The notes beneath the pieces are model-generated. The model saw only the letters and a program-made list of their open reading frames with translations, had not been told where the DNA came from and searched no databases. DNA of 16,101 bases from Tolypothrix carrinoi HA7290-LM1 (GTDB taxonomy: Bacteria > Cyanobacteriota > Cyanobacteriia > Cyanobacteriales > Nostocaceae), in assembly GCA_019358935.1 (NCBI GenBank), contig JAHHIK010000151.1, forward strand, positions 1 through 16,101. The letters are read 5' to 3'. A program made the position numbers and the translations under genes. Shown here piece by piece: positions 759-16,101 of the stretch. Within the stretch, counting starts at the first letter, position 1. Every line of letters begins with the position of its first letter.

Positions 759-948
759 TGAGACTGATATGGTTAAGTCGGTTCCAGACAAAGTGAAAGA
801 GCGCATTGTGTCAGAGATTCCTTTTTGTCGCTTCGGTAAGCCTGAGGAGGTTGCCTGGGCAGTGGCTTTCCTGCTGTCGCCCATAGCCAGCAGCTACGTG
901 ACGGGTGAGGTTCTCCGAGTCAATGGTGCCCATCACACTCTTAGTTGA
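759..948 (+). pseudogene. phaB: C-terminal fragment of an acetoacetyl-CoA reductase (PhaB/FabG-like SDR), split by the IS
   Basis: ETDMVKSVPDKVKERIVSEIPFCRFGKPEEVAWAVAFLLSPIASSYVTGEVLRVNGAHHT starts right after TCAA. It closely resembles the cyanobacterial PhaB C-terminus as I recall it. Confidence 0.75.
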
Positions 949-989
949 TAACGGCAAGGCGAATGTTGAAACACTACGGGGAGCGAACT

Positions 990-1844
990 GTGAAAACTGC
1001 GGTTGAAGAGCAGGGAATAAATGTAAACGGTTTAACCACCCGCTACTTTACGGCGGGCGATTATGACCCACCGTTAGTGTTGTTACATGGAGATGCTGAC
1101 AGCGCTGTTGATTGGTCTTGGGTGATGCCCACGCTGGCTAATCATCACCGCGTCTTGGCATTGGACTTTCCAGGTTTCGGCGATGCTGCTAAACCCAACC
1201 GGGAATACTCGGTGGAATTTCTAACGCAGTTCGTGGCTGATTTTCTCAACGCCTTAGGAATCGAGCGGGCGATACTGGTCGGCAACTCGCTAGGTGGTCT
1301 GGTTGCCCTGCGCTTTGCACTGTCACATTCAGAGAAGGTGGCTGCTTTGGTGCTGGTAGACAGTTCGGGGCTTGGTCAGGTGGTCAACCCTATCCTGTCC
1401 CTTTTGACCATGCCGTTGTACGGAGAAGCTGCAATTAGTATGTGCAAAGTGCCTCCTAGCAACAAGCTGCGAGCTAGGGCACGGGCATCGCTGTTTTTCG
1501 CTCATCCCTCCCAGGTTCCCGAAGTGTGGATAGCAGAGCAGGAGAGAATGTCGCTTCTTCCCGGCTTTCTTGAAGCCACCCTGTCCTCCCTGCGTGACCA
1601 GCTTAATGTGTTTGGACAGCGCCAGGTGCTGCTTGACTCTTTAGGGCAGTTGCAGATGCCAACCCTTGTTGTCTGGGGTACTGAGGACTTGATTTTCCCA
1701 AAAGAACAGGCTCAAGATGCGGTCAGCCGTTTACAGAAAGGACAACTCGCTTTGATACCCGACTGCGGTCACATACCCCACATTGAGCGTCCCGAACAGT
1801 TTACCGCCGCGTTAAACGACTTTTTAGCTGGAATTGACCATTAA
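990..1844 (+). CDS. Alpha/beta fold hydrolase
   Basis: Motifs are LLHG, DFPGFG, nucleophile GNSLG, WG.ED and catalytic GH.PH.E.P. The GTG at 990 follows GGGGAG; alternative starts are 945 and 963. Confidence 0.9.
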   Translation: MKTAVEEQGINVNGLTTRYFTAGDYDPPLVLLHGDADSAVDWSWVMPTLANHHRVLALDFPGFGDAAKPNREYSVEFLTQFVADFLNALGIERAILVGNSLGGLVALRFALSHSEKVAALVLVDSSGLGQVVNPILSLLTMPLYGEAAISMCKVPPSNKLRARARASLFFAHPSQVPEVWIAEQERMSLLPGFLEATLSSLRDQLNVFGQRQVLLDSLGQLQMPTLVVWGTEDLIFPKEQAQDAVSRLQKGQLALIPDCGHIPHIERPEQFTAALNDFLAGIDH

Positions 1845-1857
1845 AGGAGAAAAATTA

Positions 1858-2874
1858 ATGCAACTGAAACCAATAAATCAACAGGTCGTTGCAGTCGTAG
1901 GCGCTTCCAGCGGCATTGGACGTGAGGCAGCCCTTCAGTTTGCTCGTCGTGGAGCGAAGGTGGTTGTTTCTGCTCGCAGTGAGCCAGGGCTAAATTCTTT
2001 GGTGGATGAGATTCATGCGGATGGCGGTGAAGCAACCGCTATCGTCGCCGATGTAAGCGTATTTGAGCAAGTCAAGGCGATCGCAGACAAAGCCGTGGAG
2101 GTGTACGGGCGACTTGATACCTGGGTGCATTGTCCCGCTATTGTCGTCTTTGCTACTTTTGAGAACACAACACCAGAAGAGTTTCAGCGTGTAATTGATG
2201 TTAGTTTGATGGGGCAGGTATACGGTGCTATGGTGGCGCTACCCCATCTCAAACGTGAAGGGCGGGGGGCGCTGATCCAGCTTTCTTCCGTCTTGGGCAG
2301 GCGAAGTGTTCCGCTCCAAAGTTCCTACTGTGCGGCAAAGCACGGTATGGAAGGTTTTCTCGAAGCTTTGCGCGTCGAGTTGCAACATGAGAAAGTACCC
2401 ATCAGTGTGACGAGTGTGAAACCCGCTGCAATCAACACTCCCTTCTACAACAAATGTCGCACAAAGATAGGCGTAAAACCGGTAGGATTGCCGCCCTTGT
2501 ATAAACCCAGCCTTGTCGCCGATGCCATCCTCTACGCTGCCGAACATCCCACCCGCGACATGATGGTTGGGGATGCAGCTAGGATGATAGATTTGCTACA
2601 ACGGCTCTCGCCATCACTCGTGGATTCTTTGTTGCAGGTCATTGGCTTTCCGTTCCAGCGCACTAATGAGCCGAAGTCTGAAGACGCGCCAAACAATCTT
2701 TACGAACCTGTTCCTGAATACGACAGAGTTGAGGGTGACTTTGGCAACCTGGTAATACCAAGCATTTCTGACTTGCTGGATAAGAATCCGCCGCTCAAGT
2801 GGGGTGCGATCGCTGCTACAGCGGCGTTAGCGTTGCTGGCGGTACAAGCGTTTCAAAACAAAGGCAATATTTAG
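1858..2874 (+). CDS. SDR family oxidoreductase with a C-terminal hydrophobic tail
   Basis: It has GASSGIG and the catalytic YCAAK. AAGGAG lies upstream of the ATG at 1858. Confidence 0.92.
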   Translation: MQLKPINQQVVAVVGASSGIGREAALQFARRGAKVVVSARSEPGLNSLVDEIHADGGEATAIVADVSVFEQVKAIADKAVEVYGRLDTWVHCPAIVVFATFENTTPEEFQRVIDVSLMGQVYGAMVALPHLKREGRGALIQLSSVLGRRSVPLQSSYCAAKHGMEGFLEALRVELQHEKVPISVTSVKPAAINTPFYNKCRTKIGVKPVGLPPLYKPSLVADAILYAAEHPTRDMMVGDAARMIDLLQRLSPSLVDSLLQVIGFPFQRTNEPKSEDAPNNLYEPVPEYDRVEGDFGNLVIPSISDLLDKNPPLKWGAIAATAALALLAVQAFQNKGNI

Positions 2875-2880
2875 GTAACT

Positions 2881-3255
2881 TTAAATTGTCTGTTGCATTC
2901 CTACGCTATCGCCTGACTTCGAGGGCCATCTCACACTAAGAATAGTACAATCAGATTCAGCGACCCAAGTATGCGCTACACCTGCACACCAAAGAACGTA
3001 ATCGCCCTCACGCGATAGTACAATTTCTCTATCCTCAAACTTCAGGCAAAACCTCCCATTGATGAGGATGGAAAGTGTCGCAGCTTGGTGATTGACTGCC
3101 CACTCAGTTCTGCTGTCACCTTTTTTGTGAACACCCCATTTCACTTCTAGGTCTTGCGTGGAACGCGGATCGTCAAGAGGGCTGATAAAGTGACCAAGGA
3201 ACCATCCTCCACGATTTACGCCTTCTTCGGCATTTCCAAAAACAACTTTAGTCAT
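2881..3255 (-). CDS. Small cupin-like protein
   Basis: 124 aa with cupin-like motifs (LSILINGRF; GDYVLWCAGVAHTW). It starts 19 bp after galK on the same strand. Confidence 0.7.
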   Translation of the reverse strand: MTKVVFGNAEEGVNRGGWFLGHFISPLDDPRSTQDLEVKWGVHKKGDSRTEWAVNHQAATLSILINGRFCLKFEDREIVLSREGDYVLWCAGVAHTWVAESDCTILSVRWPSKSGDSVGMQQTI

Positions 3256-3274
3256 TTGTCAATAGTCAATAGTT

Positions 3275-4357
3275 TTATTCCCCATTCCCCAATGTTGTAA
3301 CCGGCACTAAAATTCGTCCGTTGTTACCTGCATGGTTGTATTGTTCAAGGATATTCGTTGCGATCGCTTTCCCCTCACCTGCTGCAACCAAAGCTACACA
3401 AGCACCACCAAAACCTGCACCCGTTAGCCTAGCACCAAACACTCCCGGAGTTTTCTGTAACATCCCTACCAGCGTATCAAGTGCAGGTACTGAAACTTCG
3501 TAATCATCCCGCAAGCTAGCGTGGGAAGCGTTCATCAATTCCCCAAAGCGCGAAGATGATACTTCCTGCACAGCTTCCAAAACGCGATTATTTTCTGTTA
3601 CTACGTGACGGGCGCGACGTCGTAGCGGTTCTGGTAACTCTTCCACCGCACCAGCATCAGTAATATCTCGTAGCGCCTTTACATTCAGCAACTGCGCCGC
3701 TGACTCACACTCAGCACGACGCTGGTTGTATCCACTACCCGCCAGCGTGCGAGGTACGCCGCTATCTATCACCACAATCTCTGCCCCATCTGGCAAAGGC
3801 AGTACACGCCGTTCTAAAGTACGGGTATCTAAAAACAAGATATGCTCAGTGTCAGCCAAACTGGAAGCCATCTGATCCATAATGCCGCATTGCACACCAG
3901 CGTAGCGAATTTCCGCTTGCTGTGCTAGTTGGGCAATTTCCACATCATCAATGGAGAGATTGAGAAGTTGACGCAATGCCCGCAGTATAGCAACTTCCAA
4001 AGCTGCACTGCTAGACAAACCCGAACCCATTGGAACGGAAGATTTGACGTACAAATTCAGCGGGGGTATTGTGTTTCCTGCTGATTTCAAAACCTCGATA
4101 CAGCCAAAGATGTAACTTGCGAATCCAGAGGGTGTATTATTGTTTTCGGAAATGCTAACTTTTTCGTCTAAATCTTCAGAATAAAAATGGTGCTGTCCAT
4201 CAGTACTAAAACTAACTTGTACCGTTGTGGATTGGGGAATCGCTGTTGGAAGAACGAAGCCATCGTTATAGTCGGTATGTTCACCAAGTAGGTTTACCCT
4301 TCCTGGTGCGCTGGCTTGGTTTTGTGGTGATTTATTGAATACTTTTTGGAAGTTCAT
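3275..4357 (-). CDS. galK: Galactokinase
   Basis: Motifs are APGRVNLLGEHTDYN, PMGSGLSSSAA, CGIMDQ and GARLTGAGFGG. Confidence 0.97.
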   Translation of the reverse strand: MNFQKVFNKSPQNQASAPGRVNLLGEHTDYNDGFVLPTAIPQSTTVQVSFSTDGQHHFYSEDLDEKVSISENNNTPSGFASYIFGCIEVLKSAGNTIPPLNLYVKSSVPMGSGLSSSAALEVAILRALRQLLNLSIDDVEIAQLAQQAEIRYAGVQCGIMDQMASSLADTEHILFLDTRTLERRVLPLPDGAEIVVIDSGVPRTLAGSGYNQRRAECESAAQLLNVKALRDITDAGAVEELPEPLRRRARHVVTENNRVLEAVQEVSSSRFGELMNASHASLRDDYEVSVPALDTLVGMLQKTPGVFGARLTGAGFGGACVALVAAGEGKAIATNILEQYNHAGNNGRILVPVTTLGNGE

Positions 4358-4422
4358 AATACTTTTTTAATAGCAAAAATATTAAATCTTGCACCTGTGA
4401 CCATAGATTGAACTTGATAAAA

Positions 4423-4513
4423 AAACGCAGAGTCACGCTGAGTCAAGCGCAAAGTAACACAAAGGATAAATTATAATGGTAACTGCCTTAACATGAGGTG
4501 TACCTCTGCGTTT
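4423..4513. repeat. Intergenic inverted repeat with degenerate ~10-nt tandem units
   Basis: AAACGCAGAG (4423-4432) pairs with CTCTGCGTTT (4504-4513). Internal units include ACGCAGAGTC and ACGCTGAGTC. Confidence 0.55.
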
Positions 4514-4556
4514 AAACATAAAAATTCACCGTTACTACTTTTTTTTCATTTGTGTT

Positions 4557-5645
4557 TTAACTCTCCAAAACCAGCGATCGCAATCTTCCTTCTACCTCCA
4601 CGCTGGGAAAACTTGGATCAAAAGTCATATTTTCCAACTTTCCATCACCAAGAATCACAAAAGTATCTTCAATCTTTGCCCCTGGTAAACTGGGATTCCA
4701 AGCTACAGCCATGTTTTCTGCTAAAGTATCTTTTGTGAATGGATTTGCGACAACTTCCCGCGCTAAATATCCGGTAGTTCCTCCTTGGTGATGTTCTTTA
4801 ATGGCATTGGGAAATCCGTGTTGTTCGTAAGCAACCGCCAAGGCGTGATAAACTTCGTCTAGAGTAGTTCCTCTTTTGCACATGTTCAGCGCTTGAGCTT
4901 CAATTTCGCGGACATGACGGTGTAAATCAGCGCGTTCATCCGAAAGCGCACCAAAACAGACAAATCGTGTCAAATTCGCATACAAACCGTATCCCCTAGC
5001 GCAAAACACCATCATTGCTTGCCGTCCAATCTGTTCGCCAGTGGGTGTAGCATGACGGTATAGCGGTAAACGTCTCTCACCGGCTACCAAGGTCAGCGCT
5101 GGATGCAAACCAGAAGCCCACAAAGCCTCTGCACCCGCACCCGCTAACTGATATTCTGTCCAGGTAGGCTTGGCAGCTTTGAGTACCTCTGTCATCGCAA
5201 CGCTAGCTTTTTGCCCTACTTGGCGATATCGCTCAAGTTCACTTGACATCATTACTCTTTTATGCTGTTGTAAAGATGGGGGTAATGGCTTTTCTATTTG
5301 AGTGATGGGATGGTCGCTTAAAATTTCCCCCCCAGCCGTAACATCACGGACAAAAGACTCACGGGCATCAGCATCAGCCCAACGGTTGACGTGCAACTTG
5401 AAATTAACTGGCAATTCTTCATCCACAAGACGCTGCGCCTCAATTTCATCCGTCAATACCCAAGCATCTTCTGCCGTTACCAGCACTTCTGCTACCCCAG
5501 TTTCAGCGGTAAGCAGCACGGTGTTAGAAGCACCAGCAGTCACCCAAGCAAACCAGTCTGTACCGCGTAATCGTACACCTTGCGCCTCCTGAACGCTGAG
5601 GGTTTGGCGAATTAATTCCAACTTGATAGAAACTTCTTCATTCAT
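4557..5645 (-). CDS. M24 (pita-bread fold) peptidase-like protein
   Basis: The C-terminal domain has YANLTRF, HHQGG.TGY and KIEDT motifs, and the N-terminal domain is creatinase-like. Confidence 0.85.
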   Translation of the reverse strand: MNEEVSIKLELIRQTLSVQEAQGVRLRGTDWFAWVTAGASNTVLLTAETGVAEVLVTAEDAWVLTDEIEAQRLVDEELPVNFKLHVNRWADADARESFVRDVTAGGEILSDHPITQIEKPLPPSLQQHKRVMMSSELERYRQVGQKASVAMTEVLKAAKPTWTEYQLAGAGAEALWASGLHPALTLVAGERRLPLYRHATPTGEQIGRQAMMVFCARGYGLYANLTRFVCFGALSDERADLHRHVREIEAQALNMCKRGTTLDEVYHALAVAYEQHGFPNAIKEHHQGGTTGYLAREVVANPFTKDTLAENMAVAWNPSLPGAKIEDTFVILGDGKLENMTFDPSFPSVEVEGRLRSLVLES

Positions 5646-5686
5646 AGAAAATTCATATTAAAACAAACTTACGGTTATCGTATTAT

Positions 5687-5765
5687 GTAGGTCAGGCATC
5701 TTGCCTGACTGAGTATAAGTAGTGTTACGGAGCGCGACGTTAAAAGCCGTGCTTCGTAACACTAC
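5687..5765. repeat. GTAG-type REP-like hairpins
   Basis: GTAG-GTCAGGCA-TCT-TGCCTGAC (5687-5709) and GTAGTGTTACG...CGTAACACTAC (5719-5765). Confidence 0.65.
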
Positions 5766-5854
5766 CCCCCTCTAATCGTTAATTCCTAAGAAAAACCTCC
5801 TTAGCTTTCAGTAAGGTTGTATTCGCTCTTCTGTATCGCTTGCACGCTTTGGGG

Positions 5855-6053
5855 TTGAACAGGGTGTAAGGGGGTAGGGTGTGGGGTGTAGGGTTCGGTT
5901 AGATGGGGATTCAAACCCCAACGCGCCCGAAGACACCGTAAAAGACGGTGGGGTTTTAGACCCCATTGCTCCTGGGGCGGGGTCTTCCAATCTTCAAGGT
6001 ATTCCCCACACCCCACACCCCACACCCCACACCCCACACCCAGGAGCGAAGCG
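5855..6053 (-). mobile_element. Miniature palindromic non-autonomous element, copy 1 (IS200/IS605-like ends)
   Basis: On the minus strand it reads TTTAT|CGCTTCGCTCCTGGG(TGTGGGG)n...CCCAGGAGCAATGGGGTCTAAAACCCCACCGTC...CTGTTCAA. It is homologous to 9837-10121. Confidence 0.8.
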
Positions 6054-6062
6054 ATAAAGTTA

Positions 6063-7163
6063 TCACAACCGGACTGGCGTTTGGAGATTCACCACGACTG
6101 CTTGCAACTCCTTCGCCTTCTCCTCTGGAAGCGCATCATTCGCAAACATTCCCGCTGCAAGTTCAGTTCCCGCCAAATACTTCAGCCTTTCGCTTGTCCG
6201 ATATGGTGGGTAAAACTGAGCGTGTAAATGCGCTTCCGGATGCGCTTGTCCGTCAGTTGGTGCACCGAACCAAGCCATCAGATAAGGAAACGGGCGATTC
6301 CACAAACCGTCATACTTGAGAGTGACAGTTTTTAAGGCTTTGGCAAGTCCCTGACGTTGTACGTTCGTAAGTTCCATGAACGTGGGAACAGGCTTAATTG
6401 GCGCAATCCAAACTTCATAGGGGTAACGAGCGCATACCGGGACGAATGCGATCGCATACTCATCTTGATAAAGAATCCGCTGATTGTCAGCAATCTCCTT
6501 TTGAATCAAATCTTCTAGCAAACCCCGCTGATGTTGCTGGTAAAATTGCCGCTGTTGCTCCAACATCCGTGCTGGATGTGGCGGTATAAAAGGATAAGCG
6601 TAGATTTGCCCGTGGGGATGGTGCAAAGTAACACCTACTTCTACGCCTTTGTTTTCAAAGGGTAGTACGTACTGAATTTGCGGATTTTCTCCCAAGACGC
6701 GAGTGCGATCGCCCCACACTTGCAACAGCAAATCTAGATGATCCAGTGACAAAGAACTCAGAAAGGCGTTGGGGTCTTGCGTAAAAACCACTACCTCACA
6801 GGCTCCGTTGGCAGGCATAGTTTCCACAATGCTGGCTGGCGGTTCGCGTGCAGTCACCGCCATTGACGCAAAGCGGTTATCGAACACTGCCACGTCATAC
6901 TTACCTTGAGGTAGTTCCGTAGGAAACTCAGGATTGGTCGTGGGTGCTAGCGGGTTATACTCTGGAGGCGGCATGAAAGTCCGCCCCTGACGATGACTCG
7001 CATAAGCCACCCATTCACCGCGTAACGGATGCCAGCGCAGGTGGGGATTTGCCCGCACTGGCTCGTTACTGGGGCTAGTGGCTATGATATTATCCGAAAT
7101 TGGGTATCGACTGTATAATGTCAGTTGACGTCCATCTGGCTTTAACAGCTTGTGGGAGTACAT
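6063..7163 (-). CDS. galT: Galactose-1-phosphate uridylyltransferase
   Basis: Motifs are HLRWHPLRGEWV, FENKG, HPHGQ and AGTE. It has an AGGAGG RBS and overlaps the end of the GH2 gene. Confidence 0.96.
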   Translation of the reverse strand: MYSHKLLKPDGRQLTLYSRYPISDNIIATSPSNEPVRANPHLRWHPLRGEWVAYASHRQGRTFMPPPEYNPLAPTTNPEFPTELPQGKYDVAVFDNRFASMAVTAREPPASIVETMPANGACEVVVFTQDPNAFLSSLSLDHLDLLLQVWGDRTRVLGENPQIQYVLPFENKGVEVGVTLHHPHGQIYAYPFIPPHPARMLEQQRQFYQQHQRGLLEDLIQKEIADNQRILYQDEYAIAFVPVCARYPYEVWIAPIKPVPTFMELTNVQRQGLAKALKTVTLKYDGLWNRPFPYLMAWFGAPTDGQAHPEAHLHAQFYPPYRTSERLKYLAGTELAAGMFANDALPEEKAKELQAVVVNLQTPVRL

Positions 7164-8998
7164 AAACCTCCTGAAAGGGTTGCAGCGCGAATCGCCTCAA
7201 TGGGGAATTTCGGCGTGCGATCGCTATACAACAATCCGTTTGCTTCTTGAAAGGTATCCGTGAACTGCGTATAACAAAAGCCGCTGAATATCTCAATACT
7301 ATTGATACTTTCCAGCAAGGCAGTATATTTCATTTGTAGCTCGGAGATATTCCAGCAGCGCTCATATCCCCAAACTTTGTTAGCATCGGGGTTAGTCTCA
7401 GGAGCATAGGCAATACCGCCAAACTCGGTCAGCATTATTGGCTGTCCTTGATGAGGATAGTTGTCTAAGGTCAAGATACGCCCTCCGGGACGCTTGTGAT
7501 CGAATAAATCTGATAGCTTGACTTCCGGTCCATAGCGAGCAGTCAAGTGAGAAGGATTCGTGTCATAATCATGCAGAGCGAGAATGTCAGTATCTGTACT
7601 TTCCCAGCCATCGTTACCAATTACTGGGCGAGTCGGATCTAGCGTCTTTGTCAAGTGAAACATTGCTAAAACGTAGTTCCGGTGAGCTTGGGTTTCGACC
7701 AGATTCGGAACTCCCCAAGATTCGTTAAACGGCACCCAAGCCACGATACACGGGTGGTTGACGTCACGTTTGATGACTTCAGTCCACTCTTTGGTGGTGC
7801 GCTCAACTGCTTTAGGCGAGAAGCGATAGGCACTGGGCATCTCCTCCCATACTAACAGCCCTAACACGTCTGCCCAATATAAAAAGCGGGGGTCTTCAAT
7901 TTTTTGGTGCTTGCGGACACCGTTGAAACCCATTGCTTTGGCGAGTTCTACATCTCGTCGCAACGCTTCATCATCGGGTGCGGTCATGAGGCTATCATGC
8001 CAGTAGCCTTGATCGAGAACCAAGCGCAAATAGTAGGGACGACCGTTAAGCATAAAGCGATCGCGCTGGATGCTCACAGTTCGCAGTGCTGTATAAGTTT
8101 TAACTTCATCCAGTAGTTCGCCTTTATACCACAATTCTATATCAGCATCAATCAGGGTTGGCTTTTCCGGACTCCACAGCAATTCGTTGCGGTAGTCGTC
8201 TATACCTGGATCGGAAAGGGTGATACGGCGACTAACTTCGCCGTTGAATACTTCATAAGTATCGTTCGCCAGCAGGCGATCGCCAACGCTCAATTTTACC
8301 TTTATTTGTATCCCCGAAGCTGGAGCATCACCCGCTAGAGCCGCGTAACAACCAATTTCCCACCGCTCGAAGTCGGGAGTCCAGCGGATGTGATCTATAT
8401 AAGTCGCACCTACACGTTCAACCCAGACTGTCTGCCAAATACCGCTGGTGCGAGGATACCAAATACTGTGCGGTTCAAGTTGCCAATCCTGCTTTCCTCT
8501 AGGTTTGGCGAGGTCATAAGGGTCATCCTGCGCCCAGACTGTTACTTTTGTTATACCGCTGTCATTCAAGACATGGGTAATATCGAGGGTGAAATTGGTA
8601 TGTCCACCTTCATGTTCAGCTATGTATTGACCGTTAACCCAGACACGAGCGCGATAGTCTACAGCACCGAAGTGCAGCAATAACCTACCCTCGCTGGGTG
8701 GCGTTTCAAATTCCCGCTCGTACCAGCAATTTGGGTGAAATCCTGTGTCCCCAATACCACTTTTGGTAGATTCGGGAGCAAAGGGAACTTCTATATAATC
8801 TGTCCACTGACTAATGTCGCTGGGTTGAATGCATTTGCCTTCGTCATCAAATGCGAACTTCCACAGACCGTTTAGATTTTGCCAATGCGATCGCCGCAAC
8901 TGCGGACGCGGGTATGCCGTTTCTCTCAAACCGAAATTCGTCTGATTATCGGCATTAGAGGTTAGTCCGACCTCAAGATTGTCTAACTTCAACTTCAT
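7142..8998 (-). CDS. Glycoside hydrolase family 2 (beta-galactosidase/galactofuranosidase-like)
   Basis: Motifs are LNGLWKF, LHFGAVDY, SGIWQTVW, GFNGVRKH, acid/base FNE and nucleophile TEFGG. No signal peptide is evident. Confidence 0.92.
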   Translation of the reverse strand: MKLKLDNLEVGLTSNADNQTNFGLRETAYPRPQLRRSHWQNLNGLWKFAFDDEGKCIQPSDISQWTDYIEVPFAPESTKSGIGDTGFHPNCWYEREFETPPSEGRLLLHFGAVDYRARVWVNGQYIAEHEGGHTNFTLDITHVLNDSGITKVTVWAQDDPYDLAKPRGKQDWQLEPHSIWYPRTSGIWQTVWVERVGATYIDHIRWTPDFERWEIGCYAALAGDAPASGIQIKVKLSVGDRLLANDTYEVFNGEVSRRITLSDPGIDDYRNELLWSPEKPTLIDADIELWYKGELLDEVKTYTALRTVSIQRDRFMLNGRPYYLRLVLDQGYWHDSLMTAPDDEALRRDVELAKAMGFNGVRKHQKIEDPRFLYWADVLGLLVWEEMPSAYRFSPKAVERTTKEWTEVIKRDVNHPCIVAWVPFNESWGVPNLVETQAHRNYVLAMFHLTKTLDPTRPVIGNDGWESTDTDILALHDYDTNPSHLTARYGPEVKLSDLFDHKRPGGRILTLDNYPHQGQPIMLTEFGGIAYAPETNPDANKVWGYERCWNISELQMKYTALLESINSIEIFSGFCYTQFTDTFQEANGLLYSDRTPKFPIEAIRAATLSGGLCTPTSC

Positions 8999-9360
8999 CG
9001 AAATCTCTTCTCAACTCTACTACAGAATGAATTTTGGAAAATTCGCCTTTTTTTCAAGGTTTACAAATATTGCCCGTATTAACTCAAACCACACTATCCC
9101 GTGGCAGTAAATGTCGTCGGGATGGAGGGCATGGGTTAATGAGCGCGATCGCGCACTTGCCCTTTGATTGGGGGTGTCACGCGGTATTAACTTTTGGCTC
9201 GTGACATTATGGCACAACTTTGGGAAATGCGATCGCTATGAGTGGGGGAAAAAATCAGAATAAATTTTTGTTGCCTGACATCAGCAAACTGCCCCCATAT
9301 CAACTATTTTAAAGGCGGATTTGTTTAGCCAATTTTTTTTCCGGCGAAAAATATCGATGA

Positions 9361-9448
9361 AGGTAGGGGGTAGGGAGGTAGGGGGTAGGTGGGGAACCCC
9401 CATAAAGACCCCGTCCTTAAGGACGGGGACTCATTTGAGGGGTTTCAA
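9361..9448 (+). repeat. Palindromic element at the truncated 5' end of cas10
   Basis: It contains AGGTAGGGGGTAGG twice and a perfect palindrome CCCCGTCCTTAAGGACGGGG (9409-9428). It ends in TTCAA at 9448. Confidence 0.55.
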
Positions 9449-9836
9449 GCGCGTGTACCCTACTATCCCTTATCCTCAAGAAGAAAAGCCAAGTTCAGAC
9501 GACTTACAAGCGTTAAAGCAGCAAATTCACGAAAAAATCAAGTTTATTGAAAATAGCCCAGATAATTGGCAAAACTTATTGCTGTTAATGCTGATTTTAG
9601 AAAAGTTCGGTTCCTTTATCAGCTTTGGGGAAGCGGATGTAGCGTTGGTAGATAAAGCGAGAACTACCGCTGCGGTTGCGAGTGCGATAGCGCAAGCGTT
9701 GACTTGTCAGTTCGCAAATAATCCCGACGCAACTAAACTTAGTATCGTTGCGGGTGACTTATCGGGAATTCAGAAATTTATCTACACGATATCTTCCGAT
9801 GGTGCGTTAAAATCCCTTCGCGCACGCAGTTTTTAT

Positions 9837-10121
9837 CGTCGCTTCGCTCCTGGGTGTGGGGGAGCCACTGCGGTGGACGGGTTTCCACAGCAGTAAGGAG
9901 CCAGCCGCGTGGGCGGGTCTCCCGACTTGAGCGGACTGGCGTCAAGTGGCGTTGTGGGGTGTGGGGTGTGGGGAAAACTTTCATGTTTTGTACATCCCAC
10001 ACCCAGGAGCAATTGGGTTTAAAACCCCACCGTCGCAATAAGTGTCTCCAATTGGTTAGGTGCTGCACCGATCCAATTGACCCCTACACCCACTCAGCCA
10101 CCCCCAACAAGAGCTGTTCAA
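9837..10121 (+). mobile_element. Miniature palindromic non-autonomous element, copy 2, inserted in cas10
   Basis: It follows TTTAT (9832-9836), ends in CTGTTCAA and has no target duplication. Removing it fuses TAT|CTA and restores RSFYLEL. Confidence 0.88.
9862..9952 (+). repeat. Two nested ~45-nt small dispersed repeats (GAGCCA...TGGCGT)
   Basis: The outer unit is 9862-9897 plus 9943-9952 and the inner unit is 9898-9942. Removing both restores the TGTGGGG heptamer run. Confidence 0.75.
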
Positions 10122-10915
10122 CTAGAATTGGTGACGCAGGAAGTTGTTGTGCGACTACTTAGCAAATTAAAGCTTCCCCGCACCAATGTTATATATGCGG
10201 GTGGTGGAAACATCTATATATTGGCACCAGGTACTGACGCAACAAAAGATATTATAAAACAAGTTCGGATACAGTTTAACCAATGGTTGCGAAAATAATT
10301 TCAAGGACAAGTTTACCTTGCACTCGACAGTTCAAAACCGTTTACCATTGCAGATATTGCCAGCGAAGGTAAATTTGCACAACATTGCTTATACTGGACA
10401 AAACCCGGATATAACACTTTCGGGTGGAGTCAGTATTAATGATGCAAAATTTCCGCTTTACCAAGCAGCAGAAGAATAGGGAGACGCTGAAGAGATTGCC
10501 AAAGGTAATGGACGAGATAGTTTGTGTTTATTCGGTCAAGTATTTAAGTGGGATGAATGGTTAGGTATTGATAATATTGAAAAAATTAATTCAGATACTC
10601 AAGAGTATTTAAAGGAAGAAGCCAAGCCGAATTTGTTAGGGATAATGCCTTTTGTTGAACGTTTAGAATCACAGCAAATTAAACTAAACTATTCACGTAA
10701 CTTTGTGCGTAACTTGCTAGCAACAGCGCTTCAAGAACAAGCTTTGAAAAACTTTGTTTGGTGAGGAAGCTAAGAAATCAGAGGAGGCAAAAGGAACTCG
10801 CTATTATTTACATCTCCCAAAAATCGCTTATACTCTAGCTAGATTGCCGAGAGAGGTACTAAAAGATGATTTTCGTCAATCATTGAAAAATCCTTATAAC
10901 GCTCTTTACTTTTGA

Positions 10916-11167
10916 GCGATCGCACTCGCTATTAAGGAAGACGATGCGCTTGGGGGACATGGTTCACGCGGTTACGGTTCCGTACTATTCGGTGAATTTC
11001 CAATTTACAATAGCGCAACTTTGCACCCCGGTCAACAAATTACCAACACCCCACCCGGTCAATCTGGGTTACAAGAAATTGCACCCATCGCCAACACGCA
11101 AGCATTATTAGAAAACTTTGCACGTCTGCGTGACGACATTCAACGACGACTTGCACCAGGGGGTTAA
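10916..11167 (+). pseudogene. csm3: C-terminal remnant of csm3 (Cas7-group RAMP)
   Basis: Manual translation gives AIALAIKEDDALGGHGSRGYGSV... (RAMP G-rich loop), with a stop at 11165-11167 just before the csm4 ATG. Confidence 0.82.
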
Positions 11168-11169
11168 TT

Positions 11170-11644
11170 ATGACAACTTGGAAGCTGGTTAAACTCAACT
11201 TTGGGCGATCGCCTGTTCACTTTGGCGAGTTGGGTATTGGTATGGAAGAGTCGAAAGAACGGGTGCGTTCGGATACATTATTTAGTGCTTGGGTGAGTGC
11301 CTATGCGCGGTTATTTGGTAAAGAAGCAGTCGAAGCACTGTTACAGGAGTTTCAGCAAAATACATCCGTGCGGATGAGTTCGACCTTCATCTATCGAGAA
11401 GTTAATAAGCAAACAATTTTTTACCTGCCACGTCCTCTAAAATTCCCGATTAACAAACAAGGACAACGATTTGGCATTTTTCAAAACATACAAAGGACTA
11501 AACTACCTACCCCTAGAAATTTGGCAGCGATGGTATCAAACAGAAGGATTTAGTACAATCGATGTCACCCCTAGCAAATTCGGAAGACACAAAATTTACC
11601 GCAGTGGTATCAGCTTCAGCTTACCAATTAAAATCCAAATTTAA
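11170..11644 (+). pseudogene. csm4: csm4 (Cas5-group) pseudogene, frameshifted and internally deleted
   Basis: The N-terminus reads HFGELGIGMEE...SDTLFSA...SSTF...YLPRP. After a frameshift near 11460 it continues KTYKGLNYLPLEIWQRWY, then joins the C-terminal DVTPSKFGRHKIYRSGISFSLPI. Confidence 0.85.
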
Positions 11645-11704
11645 AAACCCTTCTTCTTCCTTGTCTGTTGCGGTTCAATCTTTCTTGCAAATCCCAAATC
11701 CAAA

Positions 11705-12335
11705 ATGCTTGCTTCTCCCGTCCTTAAAAAACCAGACACCGACGAGTCAAAACGGATACGCCTTGAAAGTCCGATTTTGCATATTGGTTTGTCTGTATCT
11801 CGCTTAAAGCCGTTTGAGTACGTACAGACCACCAATAAAGTATACCGGCTCAACCAAGAAGCGATCGCCAAAGCCTTCAAAAAGCAGGGAGGGCGATTTT
11901 TAGACGACTATATCCAAGCAATAAATGACCGTCAGGACATCACAAACTTGCTAAAACAAGCATTTGGTGATGAATGGTGGAACATTGTTGATACAGATGG
12001 CGCAGAAATGGTGCGGAATGTTCACACTGAATTTACCCTGACTTTAGACACAGAAATGTTGACTTGGTTTAAGCATAAACAAGCAATGCAACTACCATTT
12101 TCAACTCTCGATGAACTGATAAAAATCTGTCAAGAATTCGCTCAATATCAATGGGATTATGAACATGACTATTGGAACGATATTCAAAATAATCCTCGCG
12201 CATCTGGCAGAAATTTAGATTTTAATTATATCCGCGAATTTTACGAACCAGAAAAAAGTCCTTACGCTTTACGTCTAGGCTGGGGTAGCAAAATGACTAA
12301 AACAACTGTAGATTTACTTTTTGATAGCGAATTCT
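11705..12335 (+). pseudogene. csm5: csm5 (Cas7-group) pseudogene, internally deleted and 3'-truncated
   Basis: It has the N-terminal SPILHIG...PFEY and a late LRLGWGS motif, at only about half the usual length. The ORF runs on to 12406 in unrelated sequence. Confidence 0.8.
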
Positions 12336-12395
12336 TTACATATAGCACCGAGAGCGTATATTTCTCTTTCTCAACTAAGTCCACTATCGGTAAAA

Positions 12396-14003
12396 ATGCC
12401 CAATAAAGTGAGAAAACTTTTCCGTGAAGAAGCGTTAGAACGCTTGAACTCTCCAGAACAGCTTGACCGACTGATGCAGGTAGTCAGCCGTCAAGCCTGG
12501 GTGCCCTTGGTTTCTATGGGCTTAGTGGTAGCTGTAGCTGGCATCTGGAGTGTAGTTGGGCGAATTCCCCTCACCGTCACAGGTTCTGGCGTGTTGATTC
12601 GACCTCGTAATGTGGTACAATTTCAAGCACTTGGTGGTGGTCAATTGTTAACCCTAAACATCAAGCCAGGAGATGTAGTTAGGCAAGGTCAAGTACTTGC
12701 TACAATCGATCAATCTAATATTAAGCAACAACTACAACAAGAAAACGCAAAATTTATCCAACTGCAAGAGCAGAACCAAGACACAGATAGACTGCAAAAG
12801 CAACAAATAGTCCTAGAACAAAAAATTCTCTCTCAGCAGCAAAAAGACCTTGAAGAAAGCCTGCGTCGAGAATCAGTAGCACCAACGCTATACTCAGAAA
12901 CGCTTGCTGCGTTAGAGCAAAAACGACAAAGCCTCGAGCAAAGCTTGTCAAGAGAAAAAGTCGAGCCAGTGTTGTACAAACAAACTCTCCTTGCACTAGC
13001 AGAAAAACGCAAAAGTCTCCTAGAGCGCTCATCAAAAATTAGCTCATTACTGCAAACTTTGCAACAAAGAGTTGAAACTCGTCGTAGTCTCTTTCAACAG
13101 AAAGTGATTAGTCAGGATGTACTGCTGCAAGCCCAGCAGGACTTGTTGAACCAAGAGACGCAACTGGGGGATATTCAAACACAACTCAAAGACCTTGATG
13201 TTCAAAAAACGTCGAGCGAACGGGAATATCTACAAAATCTTAATAGAATTGATGATATCAAAAACAACATTCAAGAAATTAAAGTTCAAAAAACCAATGC
13301 AGACCGGGAATACCTGCAAAATCTGAATAAACTTGACGACATCAAAACCAAAATTAAAGATATTGAAGCCCAAAAAACCAAACTAGTTCAACAAGACTTA
13401 GAAAAATCAATAGGGAAATTAAATCAAATTCAGGAAGTAAGACGCAAGATTGCTTCCTTAAAACTGCAATTAACTCAGTCTGGACTAATTATCAGCAAAT
13501 ATGATGGTCGCGTCTTGTCAGTTGGTGTCCTCCCCGGTCAAATTGTCAGCGCAGGTACCCGGATTGGGACGATTGAAGCTGAAGACCCCAACACCAAACT
13601 GTCCAGTCTTGTTTACTTTGCTGATAAGGATGGCAAGCTTCTAAAACCTGGCATGACTGTACAGGTAACACCCAGCGTTGTCAAGCGCGATCGCTTCGGT
13701 GGAATTGTTGGGGTAGTAACGAACATTTCTCCCTTTCCCGTGACAACTCAAGATATTACAGCGCAAGTGGGTAACGAAGACTTAGCTAAAAGCCTTGCAA
13801 ATAGTAACGCGGCTCGTGTGCAAGTTTTTGTCCAACTGGAAAAAGACTCAACCACTGTCAGTGGTTACAAATGGTCTTCCTCTTCTGGACCTGCACTAAA
13901 AATTTCATCAGGTACGACTACGCAAGTTCGGGTCAAAGTTGGAGAAGTGGCTCCTATCTCTTACATTATTCCAATATTTCGCTCTTGGACTGGCATTTAT
14001 TAA
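12396..14003 (+). CDS. NHLP/bacteriocin system secretion protein (HlyD-family periplasmic adaptor)
   Basis: It begins LFREEALERLNSPEQLD, followed by one TM segment, a lipoyl-like half motif, a long coiled coil, GYKWSSS.GP and a PISYIIP end. Confidence 0.93.
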   Translation: MPNKVRKLFREEALERLNSPEQLDRLMQVVSRQAWVPLVSMGLVVAVAGIWSVVGRIPLTVTGSGVLIRPRNVVQFQALGGGQLLTLNIKPGDVVRQGQVLATIDQSNIKQQLQQENAKFIQLQEQNQDTDRLQKQQIVLEQKILSQQQKDLEESLRRESVAPTLYSETLAALEQKRQSLEQSLSREKVEPVLYKQTLLALAEKRKSLLERSSKISSLLQTLQQRVETRRSLFQQKVISQDVLLQAQQDLLNQETQLGDIQTQLKDLDVQKTSSEREYLQNLNRIDDIKNNIQEIKVQKTNADREYLQNLNKLDDIKTKIKDIEAQKTKLVQQDLEKSIGKLNQIQEVRRKIASLKLQLTQSGLIISKYDGRVLSVGVLPGQIVSAGTRIGTIEAEDPNTKLSSLVYFADKDGKLLKPGMTVQVTPSVVKRDRFGGIVGVVTNISPFPVTTQDITAQVGNEDLAKSLANSNAARVQVFVQLEKDSTTVSGYKWSSSSGPALKISSGTTTQVRVKVGEVAPISYIIPIFRSWTGIY

Positions 14004-14125
14004 TCTTAATTCGTTGTTGCTAGTAAACCTCCGAAGTGAGAGTCAATATCGATTAAAAAGCAGTGATGGAAATAGTCAAATTAGCGCACAATAAAATAAA
14101 GCTGCCTGGTCTCAAAATATGACCT

Positions 14126-14731
14126 ATGACCTACACCCCACCCAAACTCCTAACTTTCGAGCAATTTCTCACCGAGTATGGGGATAATCCCCGCTATGAA
14201 CTCATTGACGGAGAACTACGTGACATGGAACCCACAGGTCCCCACGAAGCAGTTTCAGGAAGTATTGCTGGTAAAATCTATGCAGAAATTTTTCGTTCTA
14301 ATTTAAACTGGTTGATTCCAAAAAGTTGTCTAATTAAACCACCAGCTGCTGAAGCTACAGCATTACGTCCAGACGTGATTGTTCTAGATCAAGCAGAACT
14401 TAAAGCGGAACCGCTTTGGCAAAAAGAACCTATTATCTGTAATGGCAGTACAATTAAGCTCGTTGCCGAAGTTGTGAGTACTAATTGGCAAGATGATTAT
14501 GCAAGAAAAGTAGAAGAATATGCAATTCTTGAAATCCCAGAATATTGGATTATAGACTTTCGCGGTTTGGGTGGCAAGCAATTCATCGGTAATCCAAAAC
14601 AACCCACCTTTACCGTCTGTCAACTAATTAATGGCGCATACCAGCAGCAACAATATCGCTATAGAGATGCTATTACCTCTTACCTCTTCCCGAACTTGCA
14701 ACTCAAACTCGACGATATTATGCCGCACTAA
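14126..14731 (+). CDS. Uma2 family (DUF820) PD-(D/E)XK endonuclease
   Basis: Motifs are RYELIDG, RPDV, LVAEVVS, DY..K..EY and IPEYWIID. Confidence 0.93.
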   Translation: MTYTPPKLLTFEQFLTEYGDNPRYELIDGELRDMEPTGPHEAVSGSIAGKIYAEIFRSNLNWLIPKSCLIKPPAAEATALRPDVIVLDQAELKAEPLWQKEPIICNGSTIKLVAEVVSTNWQDDYARKVEEYAILEIPEYWIIDFRGLGGKQFIGNPKQPTFTVCQLINGAYQQQQYRYRDAITSYLFPNLQLKLDDIMPH

Positions 14732-14877
14732 CCCAAAACATTCGCGCTTCATTGCTGCTTTTTCAACGCGATATCGCTCCGTCATTTTTGCTTGCTACTA
14801 GAATAGCATTGCTTGATCGTGCTGCGCTCATCTTGATGAACTTGCAGCCTAGTGGCTAAGTACGGCAAAATTATCTA

Positions 14878-15996
14878 ATGCCTTTTGCCTTCATTAAAAG
14901 TATCCTACCCCAACCTAAAACCAGTCGCGTCCGTACCCCCACGCTGCTGCAAATCGAAGCAACCGAATGCGGCGCTGCTGCCCTCGGAATTATTTTAGGC
15001 TATTACTCGCGCATTGTCCCCTTGGCAGAATTGCGGCGCGAGTGTGGCGTCTCGCGAGATGGTAGCAATGCCTTTAATATCGTCAAAGCAGCGAGGAACT
15101 ATAACTTAAACGCTAAAGGTTTCAAACCGTCTCTAGAAAGTCTGAAAACCCTGCCTCCCCCCTACATTGTCTTTTGGAATTTCAACCACTTTCTCGTGGT
15201 GGAAGGGTTCAAAAAAAACCACGTCTACCTCAACGACCCAGCCACAGGACGCCGGACAGTTTCCCTAGAAGAGTTTGACCGTGCTTACACTGGCGTCGCC
15301 TTAATGATGCAACCAGGACCGGAATTTCAACCTGGAGGTCAAAAAAGTAACATTGTATCGGCATTAGCCTCACGTTTGCAACACTCACAGAGTACTATTA
15401 TATTCTGCTTTATCCCAGGGCTTTTACTGAGAGTTTTTCGGTTGGCAGTGCCAGGTTTTACTCAGGTATTTGTGGATGAAATTCTCATTTCTGAGCGAAC
15501 TGACTGGATACGTCCGCTGGTAATAGGAATGGTTCTCACTGGTGTACTGCGGGCACTACTTGCCAGACTGCGGCTTACCTACCTACGCTTGCTGATGCTG
15601 AAGTTGTCAGTCACGCTGTCGGGGCAGTTTCTCTGGCATATTCTCCGCTTGCCAGTTGGGTTTTATGCTCAACGCTTTGCAGGTGAAATCAGCAGCCGGG
15701 TGTCACTCAACGATAAAATTGCGAATGTACTCTCAGGTCGTCTTGCTACCACGGTCATCGACGCGGTGATGATGGTGTTTTACTTTCTGATTATGCTTCA
15801 GTATGACCTTGTACTGAGTGCGATCGCTGTTGGTTTTGCTGCTATCAACTTTTTCGCCCTCCAGTGGCTATCGCAAACGCGGGTGGATGCCAATATGAAG
15901 TTGGCGGCTGAATATGGTAAGGTCAATGGGGTAGCGATCGCTGGCATCCAAAATATAGAAACAATCAAAGCTTCGGGGTTAGTTGCTGTTCGCTAA
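14878..15996 (+). pseudogene. NHLP-family C39 peptidase/ABC transporter, truncated before the ATPase domain
   Basis: It has the C39 motifs QIEATECGAA, HFLVVEG and NDPA, then a TM domain. Similarity ends at ETIKASGL, followed by VAVR*. There are no Walker motifs. Confidence 0.85.
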
Positions 15997-16009
15997 TATC
16001 TGGACAAGC

Positions 16010-16101
16010 CTACCCATCATTTCCCGTTTGTCCAGCTATCAACCGTTCAACGTATTCTCTAAGCCGTTTTTGCCAGTTAGGAACGGCTTTCAATTTGTCT
16101 T
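16010..16101 (-). CDS. 3' end of a small hypothetical protein (partial, runs off the window)
   Basis: Manual translation gives ...DKLKAVPNWQKRLREYVERLIAGQTGNDG*, an amphipathic helical segment. Confidence 0.45.
   Translation of the reverse strand, partial: DKLKAVPNWQKRLREYVERLIAGQTGNDG

Follow-up and report, generated by a model that had tools for sequence, protein, structure and literature searches.

About 50 places in the genome of Tolypothrix carrinoi HA7290-LM1 are occupied by a non-coding mobile element roughly 200 bases long, and two of these places lie within the window, the 16,101-nucleotide stretch of DNA analysed here. It is likely, at a probability of roughly 78%, that this TTAT element is moved as single-stranded DNA by a borrowed IS200/IS605 TnpA, whose cut sites are found via two four-nucleotide guides held in hairpin loops. 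A borrowed 'peel-and-paste' transposase acting on an unusual end layout is likely because the loop letters change in step with both ends of the element. The best reading of the compared sequences would be a parasite of the PATE type (palindrome-associated transposable elements; Dyall-Smith et al. 2011, PMC3119063, accessible in part) on the IS200/IS605 system, with a circularly permuted right end. This class of element is already known, and the surprising part would be guides that are permuted, long-range and naturally reprogrammed. The original prediction recognised the type of family, but overlooked the conserved core that bears the mechanism, and its proposals of a reversible gene knock-out, an omega-like RNA and a construction from heptamer repeats were not supported.

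Copies in the genome and at the cas10 locus

Copies were collected by anchoring on the core motif, and 49 full-length records could be parsed, which occupy 48 distinct sites; the parser demanded a TTCAA end, and only two core matches were without one (the first a chance hit within a gene, the second at the end of a contig). A covariance model gave 58 matches in this genome at E values up to 0.05. The parsed records comprise group A (38 records of 195–196 nt, 18 of them identical), group B (nine records, including the cas10 copy) and group C (two records, including the copy at 5855). The units, 192–199 nt long, are without coding capacity, and the open reading frames that cross copies are spurious overlaps. 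TTAT stands directly before 47 of the 48 sites, and the remaining site follows TTCAA in a tandem pair. The TTTAT that had been expected upstream is present at both window copies but is not constant (28/48 sites), the target being TTAT. Likewise, the supposedly shared terminus CTGTTCAA closes both window copies but only 11 of the 49 parsed copies, and the main subfamily (38/49) ends in CTTCTTCAA. Every parsed copy begins with C, the sequence beyond the TTCAA end is random among copies, and target duplications were seen at 0/48 sites for 5-mers and 2/48 for 4-mers. Near-identical empty paralogous sites exist for the copy on contig C119. Fixed ends, no duplication, empty alleles and the covariation of guides and cut sites together bear out a non-autonomous, PATE-like family of the IS200/IS605 type, as predicted.

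Half of the sites (23/46) lie inside open reading frames, compared with 55% of 1500 random TTAT sites, and 18 of these 23 copies are in coding-strand orientation against a background of 66% (p = 0.15). Since both shares are near background, there is evidence neither that the element avoids genes nor that it chooses a strand; the site distribution is most simply read as a recent burst. Splicing, or tolerance through a sense-strand bias, was rejected on the same non-significant excess (18/23 vs 66%). In genome G155, which holds at least 30 copies, the strands of the matches alternate along the chromosome, as judged by eye in a look for replication-strand bias.

An internal TTAT of group A has been reused as a left cut, and a short copy on contig C2 begins there; this reuse fits the flexible spacing reported for a Geobacillus TnpA in the accessible text of bioRxiv 10.1101/2023.03.14.532601. 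Tandem right-to-left joints occur on contigs C52 and C42. On C52, three cores stand in tandem with TCAA joined to an internal-TTAT start, an array of the kind that would arise if a 141-nt circle had been excised and then inserted into its parent. At loci L105, L264, L152 and L169, too, family members are nested or stand in tandem, having entered another copy at a TTAT or TTAA within it. Distant single-copy relatives are found in this genome as well (C16:85770-86030, C52:31700-31930, C113:6709-6950, C141:13830-14000, C10:23480-23620, C54, C57 and C125), with other guide/end pairs (CAAG/TGAC, GAAT/TCAA and AAGT/TTAA), along with many more heptamer-armed cassettes.

The cas10 copy is a precise insert without target duplication. 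Removal of its 285 nt (9837-10121) joins TTTTAT to CTAGAA and restores RSFY/LEL, so that the coordinates originally given for the split motif were correct. The TIGR02578 match breaks at the joint and resumes there (positions 119-261 before the insert, 262-318 after it), and Pfam Csm1_B positions 1-16 precede the insert while positions 13-73 fall in the open reading frame that follows. RSFYLEL is present in 19 of 20 cas10 homologues and RSFYLDL in the other one, and a homologue from the same genus reads RSFYLEL across the site, with TTTTATCTAGAG. The suggested search for empty cas10 alleles succeeded: three further public data sets (X2, X4 and X5) have contigs in which 9836 is fused exactly to 10122.

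The idea that the element knocks out cas10 reversibly had to be given up for this locus. The gene here carries an extra stop (10296-10298), its first 118 profile positions are unmatched, and segments of ~850 and ~1360 nt of the X4 gene are missing; open stretches of 663–739 residues are found in 18 of the 20 homologues. The decay is older than the insertion, because the empty allele of X2 is already without the same two segments, and with the gene already dead, excision of the element would not repair it. The cas10 hit is incidental. A second cas10 is present in the same genome, on contig C153.

The type III-A locus around the insert (9357-12406) is wholly decayed, with cas10 in pieces, more frame breaks and a truncated csm4 (TIGR01903 positions 1-96 of 304). 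At the broken 5' end of cas10 (9355-9470) lies a further heptamer-armed cassette that contains CCCCGTCCTTAAGGACGGGG, a perfect hairpin, as well as GGGGTTTCAAG, which resembles a loop; the cassette may be a decayed relative of the TTAT-element family. Elsewhere in the window, positions 264-757 are likely an intron-interrupted tnpB element: a group II intron, of which the 3' end is present (264-342; Rfam RF00029, 60 bits), is followed by a C-terminal piece of tnpB (387-719) and a classical IS605 right end finishing GTGTCAA, with a ~30-nt small repeat in the hairpin loop. Positions 945-8998 are an ordinary galactose-use cluster (hydrolase, short-chain dehydrogenase, cupin, galactokinase, M24 peptidase, galT and GH2 glycosidase), and positions 12321-16101 are a bacteriocin-type export locus (HlyD-family protein, Uma2 endonuclease and C39-peptidase ABC transporter).

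The second window copy sits between galT and the M24 peptidase, 10 nt past the galT stop; as claimed, it is 199 nt long, on the minus strand, starts after TTTAT and terminates in CTGTTCAA (Table 1). Its orthologous locus, found in one of five genomes, carries a different repeat cassette, and X2 has other DNA there. The 285 bp originally taken as the length of the element is the size of the insert but consists of a 194-nt unit plus a 91-nt nested insert: with 9862-9952 taken out, the cas10 copy is identical to a 194-nt copy on contig C70. The joints 9861-9953 and 9897-9943 were both seen in contigs of other public data sets, and the repeats are nested one in another. Small repeats of ~45 nt like those at 9862-9952 nest in themselves and in heptamer tracts genome-wide, and a loose pattern for them has 286 matches in this genome. 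They resemble SDR elements, and the heptamers of the element arms are presumably of the STRR type; cyanobacterial small dispersed repeats were reportedly described by Elhai et al. in 2008. The 15-bp stem noted earlier is present in the cas10 copy (9846-9860 with 9996-10010) but is subfamily-specific and lies outside the conserved core. The hairpin GGGTTTAAAACCC, also noted earlier, lies at 10015. The inner-hairpin region of this copy is degenerate. RNA folding of the two window copies is far better than that of shuffles (z of -4.3 and -5.6).

Table 1. Features of the two window copies and of the interrupted cas10 gene
Feature	Positions	Strand	Remarks
Target tetranucleotide TTAT, putative left cleavage site	9833..9836	+	Host sequence, retained; present in empty allele
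Whole cas10 copy	9837..10121	+	Unit of 194 nt with a nested insert of 91 nt
5' spacer arm, G-rich heptamers	9846..10010	+	Subfamily-specific; missing from minimal relatives
Nested 91-nt insert	9862..9952	+	~46-nt small repeat holding a second, 45-nt repeat (9898-9942)
Left recognition module	10015..10044	+	GGG, 7-nt loop TTTAAAA, CCCC, then inner-hairpin region; layout of autonomous IS605 left ends
Putative left guide AAAA	10021..10024	+	Predicts target TTNT; +185 from left cut
Right hairpin, variant form, loop TGCTGCA	10049..10079	+	Without the GANT guide of sister subfamilies
3' C-rich heptamer spacer arm	10080..10117	+	
Right terminal tetranucleotide TCAA, putative right cleavage site	10118..10121	+	Flanks random directly beyond
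Target TTAT of second copy	6054..6057	-	
Second copy, 199 nt	5855..6053	-	Intergenic; canonical core; 71 bits, covariance model
Putative left guide AAAA of second copy	5954..5957	-	In loop TCTAAAA
Putative right guide GAAT of second copy	5909..5912	-	In loop TTTGAAT; predicts end TCNA
cas10/csm1 pseudogene, piece before insert	9357..9836	+	TIGR02578 positions 119-261
cas10/csm1 pseudogene, piece after insert	10122..10298	+	Ends at premature TAA; TIGR02578 positions 262-318

The conserved core and its putative guide letters

A pattern scan with one genome per species returned at least 100 loci, and among the 80 named loci listed all but four are cyanobacterial (Okeania, Lyngbya, Scytonema, Rivularia, Calothrix, Nostoc, Cylindrospermum etc.); L089, L117 and L149, non-cyanobacterial chance matches, were excluded from counts. 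When 151 genomes from the phylum were examined with the covariance model, 14 of them gave matches, and every one of these belongs to the order of the window (Cyanobacteriales); 14 of the 67 model-found matches were read by eye only. Viral contigs gave 36 matches to the short core pattern and none with the two-hairpin pattern, and plasmids gave a single record with a match, which was partial.

Across these relatives, the arms vary freely in heptamer type and number, and minimal forms of ~125 nt are without the 5' arm; the heptamers are exchangeable spacers and not, as had been proposed, what the element is built on. What is conserved is a core of ~80 nt. Its first part consists of GGG, a 7-nt loop, CCC, a 6-bp hairpin and a short linker, and its second part of an 11–12-bp stem, in which two T face each other as a T-T mismatch, and another 7-nt loop. 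Over 76 distinct cores, this fold is 93.8% paired, pairing falls to about half when the fold is slid, and two-sided changes fill 79 cells compared with 26.8 after shuffling. One caveat is that the left stem offers only three invariant pairs and that, for most rows, the search pattern itself demanded these as well as the GGG/CCC (GGGG/CCCC) pairs; evidence for the fold therefore comes from the outer pairs and the model-found matches. A nested fold pairing the left CCCC with the right GGGG was rejected, with one two-sided change only. At loci L239 and L252 the right hairpin is kept with a wholly different stem (CATAG/CTATG), the loop TTCAAGA and the end TTAT.

In IS608, the left guide AAAG goes with the target TTAC and the right guide GAAT with the terminus TCAA, and the pairing is crossed, the first guide base pairing with position -3 and the second with -4 (A+16:T-3 and A+17:T-4; G-35:C-3 and A-34:T-4), as described in the accessible parts of PMC5934647 and PMC3201880. 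The same published four-letter pairs suggest that the fourth guide base pairs with -1. This rule was applied to the last four letters of each 7-nt loop of the miniature elements, and changes of loop letters 4, 5 and 7 go together with changes at -3, -4 and -1 in the end to which the loop corresponds. On the left, AANA is seen with TTAT and AANT with TTAA; on the right, GANT is seen with TCAA, AAAT with TTAA, AANA with TTAT and GAAA with TCAT. Single copies carry the same pair at both ends (CAAG/TGAC on C16, GAAT/TCAA on C52), and sister copies in one genome switch together, L258 having AAAA/TTAT while L232 and L248 have AAAT/TTAA. A simple antiparallel pairing of loop and target was rejected, as TTTAAAA would give TTAA where TTAT is observed (the wrong base at -1).

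With subfamily boundaries drawn from the divergence of flanks among copies, the right guide fits in 17 of 18 subfamilies (permutation mean 6.7) and the left guide in 15 of 15 (permutation mean 9.1); the permutation p values of 5e-6 and 8e-4 overstate the significance, given that the subfamily table was compiled by hand and includes kin subfamilies. The predicted right tetranucleotide lies at most 75 nt away in 130 of 146 distinct elements, and some of the 16 misses are parse errors or decayed copies. The one exception among subfamilies is the right end of the cas10 subfamily, in which the right loop reads TGCTGCA and GANT is absent from the whole 194 nt, yet the end is TCAA at five sites. Relatives with a hairpin of the TGCTGCA type end in TCAA (five), TTAA (one) or TTAT (two). 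A right guide lent in trans would be one explanation.

Origin of the modules and the enzyme that may move them

An IS605 clade of cyanobacteria, whose tnpA and tnpB are divergent, has a left end of the same build. Of 30 such ends, 27 obey the guide rule (CAAG/TGAC, AAAA/TTAT and AAAG/TTAC, with the guide at +15 to +17). The TTAT-type members of this clade (L335, L344 and L355, for example) have the loops TATAAAA, TTTAAAA and TCTAAAA, which are the loops of groups A, B and C, and the covariance model of miniature cores picks out autonomous IS605 left ends (E values of 6e-5 to 0.1). The TnpA of the clade passes the IS200/IS605 transposase model NF033573 (126.9 bits, cut-off 55). The right ends of the clade are classical, guide then downstream hairpin, in all 12 parsed cases. 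When the 12 nt after the right guide were compared with the strand upstream of the loop and with the downstream sequence, 99 of 104 distinct modules of the miniature elements were found to have a right stem that pairs upstream (mean 9.5 of 12), the downstream mean being 2.8. From these comparisons we infer that loop 1 holds the left guide, derived from the left end of this IS605 clade, and that loop 2 holds the right guide in a circularly permuted palindrome.

Under the favoured mechanism, a TnpA supplied from elsewhere would cut the element out and re-insert it as single-stranded DNA, each cut site being located by pairing with the four-letter DNA guide in one of the core hairpin loops. At the permuted right end, the partner strand and the base-triplet T would lie upstream of the guide instead of downstream, with the stem foot, the guide and the IS608-type triplet bases all retained and rejoined as a T-N-N-guide loop; the invariant T and A of the loop would make the triplet with T-4. 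The heptamer arms would act as flexible spacers, so that the left cut would lie 17 to 185 nt ahead of its guide and the right cut about 20 to 80 nt beyond its own. A flexible spacing is reported for Geobacillus TnpA in the accessible text of bioRxiv 10.1101/2023.03.14.532601.

The TnpA clade with the matching left end occurs in 81 of 301 family genomes; it was not found in the fragmented 184-contig assembly here, even though 18 copies of the element are identical, and was not found in G155 either, despite the at least 30 copies there. The presence in this genome of classical PATEs with the left end of this clade (on C28, C34, C48, C86 and C41) means that the enzyme may be recently lost, hidden in a gap or replaced, and the replacement may be one of the five IS200/IS605-type TnpA genes of other clades found here, on contigs C56, C149, C90, C133 and C55. 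The autonomous tnpA/tnpB/iscB elements with the same two ends that had been anticipated did not appear among the inspected loci, which in this genome were 7 Y1 matches, 6 of 7 RRXRR matches and 49 of 51 TnpB-domain matches and in ten other genomes 30 + 20 + 30 Y1 loci; nor was the permuted right end found on an autonomous element among the 12 parsed right ends. The classical PATEs, ~350–450 nt long (C28:59779, C34:45067, C48:6071, C86:36064 and C41:56698), have a left end of the IS605 type, with a guide that matches their TTAC or TCAT target, a tnpB-tail-like stretch and, in four of five, a right end finishing GTGTCAA. They are better candidates for stand-alone omega-RNA loci than the TTAT element.

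The same guide logic could serve another HUH mover, such as TnpA(REP)/RAYT, a subclass 1.2 Y1 enzyme or an unrecognised relative that uses loop guides. The long and variable distances between guide and cut would suit such a mover, as would the lack of the best-matching IS605 TnpA in this assembly and in G155, and two Y1 proteins on contigs C46 and C51 have YxxNQxxHH tails, the motif of subclass 1.2 (PMC6006769, accessible in part). This alternative is nevertheless unlikely, as the left module shares homology with the left ends of genuine IS605 elements and the RAYT-like and subclass 1.2 genes bear palindromes of their own, none of those inspected in this genome and five others being flanked by the core. 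The two Y1 genes (C46:32571 and C51:17950; L007 and L006) are flanked here by repeated palindromes, and genes of their type are described, in the accessible part of PMC6006769, as generally without terminal structures. REP/REPIN elements with a RAYT were likewise rejected as a class for the element, given that its copies flank none of the RAYT-like genes inspected and have no GTAG-type 5' guide.

Doubt of another kind concerns the right loop, which might be a passive relic, with the right cut made by protein preference or by a guide lent from another bound end and the match between loop and terminus merely inherited. The cas10 subfamily spreads without a right guide, and a few copies end in the tetranucleotide predicted by the left guide (L237, L238 and L296), both of which speak for a relic. 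At least four right loop/end pairs in multi-copy subfamilies, together with single-letter switches between sisters, are hard to obtain by drift, and with the compensatory change in the right stem they leave a passive loop improbable.

Spread through a structured RNA (omega-, bridge- or intron-like), in which the loops would pair with DNA as RNA, is very improbable. The tRNA T-loop consensus has T first and A fifth, and the loops resemble it when compared by eye with a tRNA arm; the RNA folding scores are strong, and the share of sites in open reading frames (23/46) is no lower than background. Against an RNA stand the crossed pairing order, which is the IS608 rule for DNA, the sense-strand excess that stays within background (18/23 vs 66%, p = 0.15), the lack of a relevant Rfam family, and the absence of a tnpB tail, though the separate classical PATEs here have one. 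The originally suggested omega-like RNA is not supported by these findings, the covariation pointing to DNA cut sites. No HEARO or related Rfam match was found in the window at E values up to 5, a weak negative as Rfam covers few TnpB scaffolds, and the element is unlike the tnpB or iscB flanks of this genome; an OMEGA locus was rejected.

Beyond the loop-guided TnpA reading itself, a wider proposal can be put forward tentatively. The ~80-nt core may be a portable two-guide DNA module in which each loop is a circularly permuted IS200/IS605 end that names the tetranucleotide for TnpA, so that both donor end and target would be programmed at a long and variable distance, possibly on another DNA molecule. 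Such a module would have been naturally reprogrammed many times (TTAT, TTAA, TCAA, TCAT and TGAC), could mobilise any DNA between a matching upstream and a matching downstream tetranucleotide, and could provide the right guide for relatives that have none of their own, the cas10 copy among them.

Comparison with known systems

Transposases of the IS200/IS605 family select cut sites by DNA-DNA pairing (PMC3201880, PMC5934647), and in the characterised ends described in the accessible parts of the literature searched the guide stands at the open foot of a near-terminal hairpin. The present family suggests that a guide may also work from a closed loop whose strands come in another order, and from as far as ~185 nt away. 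With it, what TnpA recognises could be tested directly and cheaply, and it would offer a compact natural template for scarless insertion at targets of choice, as well as a mechanism for widespread gene-breaking cyanobacterial repeats, the sites here interrupting open reading frames in 23 of 46 cases. No description of this family or of a loop-held guide was found in the literature searched, whose coverage was partial and does not establish absence from print.

The closest relatives at the left end are the cyanobacterial IS605 elements (TnpA P0001 and its relatives; L301, L333-L362 and L404-L423), which share the layout C-N8-10-GGG-NNN-guide-CCCC-hairpin. Unlike the miniature element, they have a classical right end (GAAT, a downstream hairpin and TGTCAA) and code for TnpA and TnpB. 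In the miniature element, the left module is near-terminal in minimal relatives and central in the copies of this genome. The likeness to IS608, as far as PMC3201880 and PMC5934647 are accessible, lies in four-nucleotide guides that pair crosswise with left target and right terminus and covary with the cut sites, in the T at -4 and the A at -2, in the right-hand GAAT/TCAA pair, in the C that begins the element and in a conserved unpaired T in the stem. The two differ in that the IS608 guide dangles 5' of the hairpin foot, with the triplet bases 3' of the foot, whereas in the miniature element the foot is closed into a 7-nt T-N-N-guide loop and the partner of the right stem lies upstream. IS608 cuts 19 and 10 nt from the feet, while the distances in the miniature element vary several-fold.

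Among repeats already described in cyanobacteria, the MITEs of Wang et al. 2012 (PMC3542288, accessible in part) and the small dispersed repeats reportedly described by Elhai et al. 2008 are likewise structured, 100–300 bp long and disruptive of open reading frames, and likewise hold small repeats nested in heptamer tracts. Compared by description, since the supplement is without MITE sequences, the MITEs of Wang et al. differ in having terminal inverted repeats and no link to an insertion sequence. In the TTAT element, the termini C... and ...TTCAA are unrelated, and the complementary arms are internal and missing in minimal relatives; with neither terminal inverted repeats nor target duplication, a classical MITE mobilised by a DDE enzyme was rejected. 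Members of the family may be hidden among the published cyanobacterial lists of MITEs and small repeats.

PATE-like elements are also described from Geobacillus (bioRxiv 10.1101/2023.03.14.532601, accessible in part). As in PATEs (PMC3119063, to the extent that the accessible text describes them), the TTAT element is non-coding, has no terminal inverted repeats or target duplication, uses a target of 4–5 nt, carries palindromes, the left one related to IS605 left ends, and has small repeats nested inside. Unlike PATEs, its palindromes are fused in a central core of ~80 nt, ~95–185 nt from the left cut in long forms, and only the left palindrome matches an IS605 end, the right one being permuted. 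The element would work like an IS200/IS605 substrate and shares most of the features that define PATEs, and it departs from both in the geometry of its right end.
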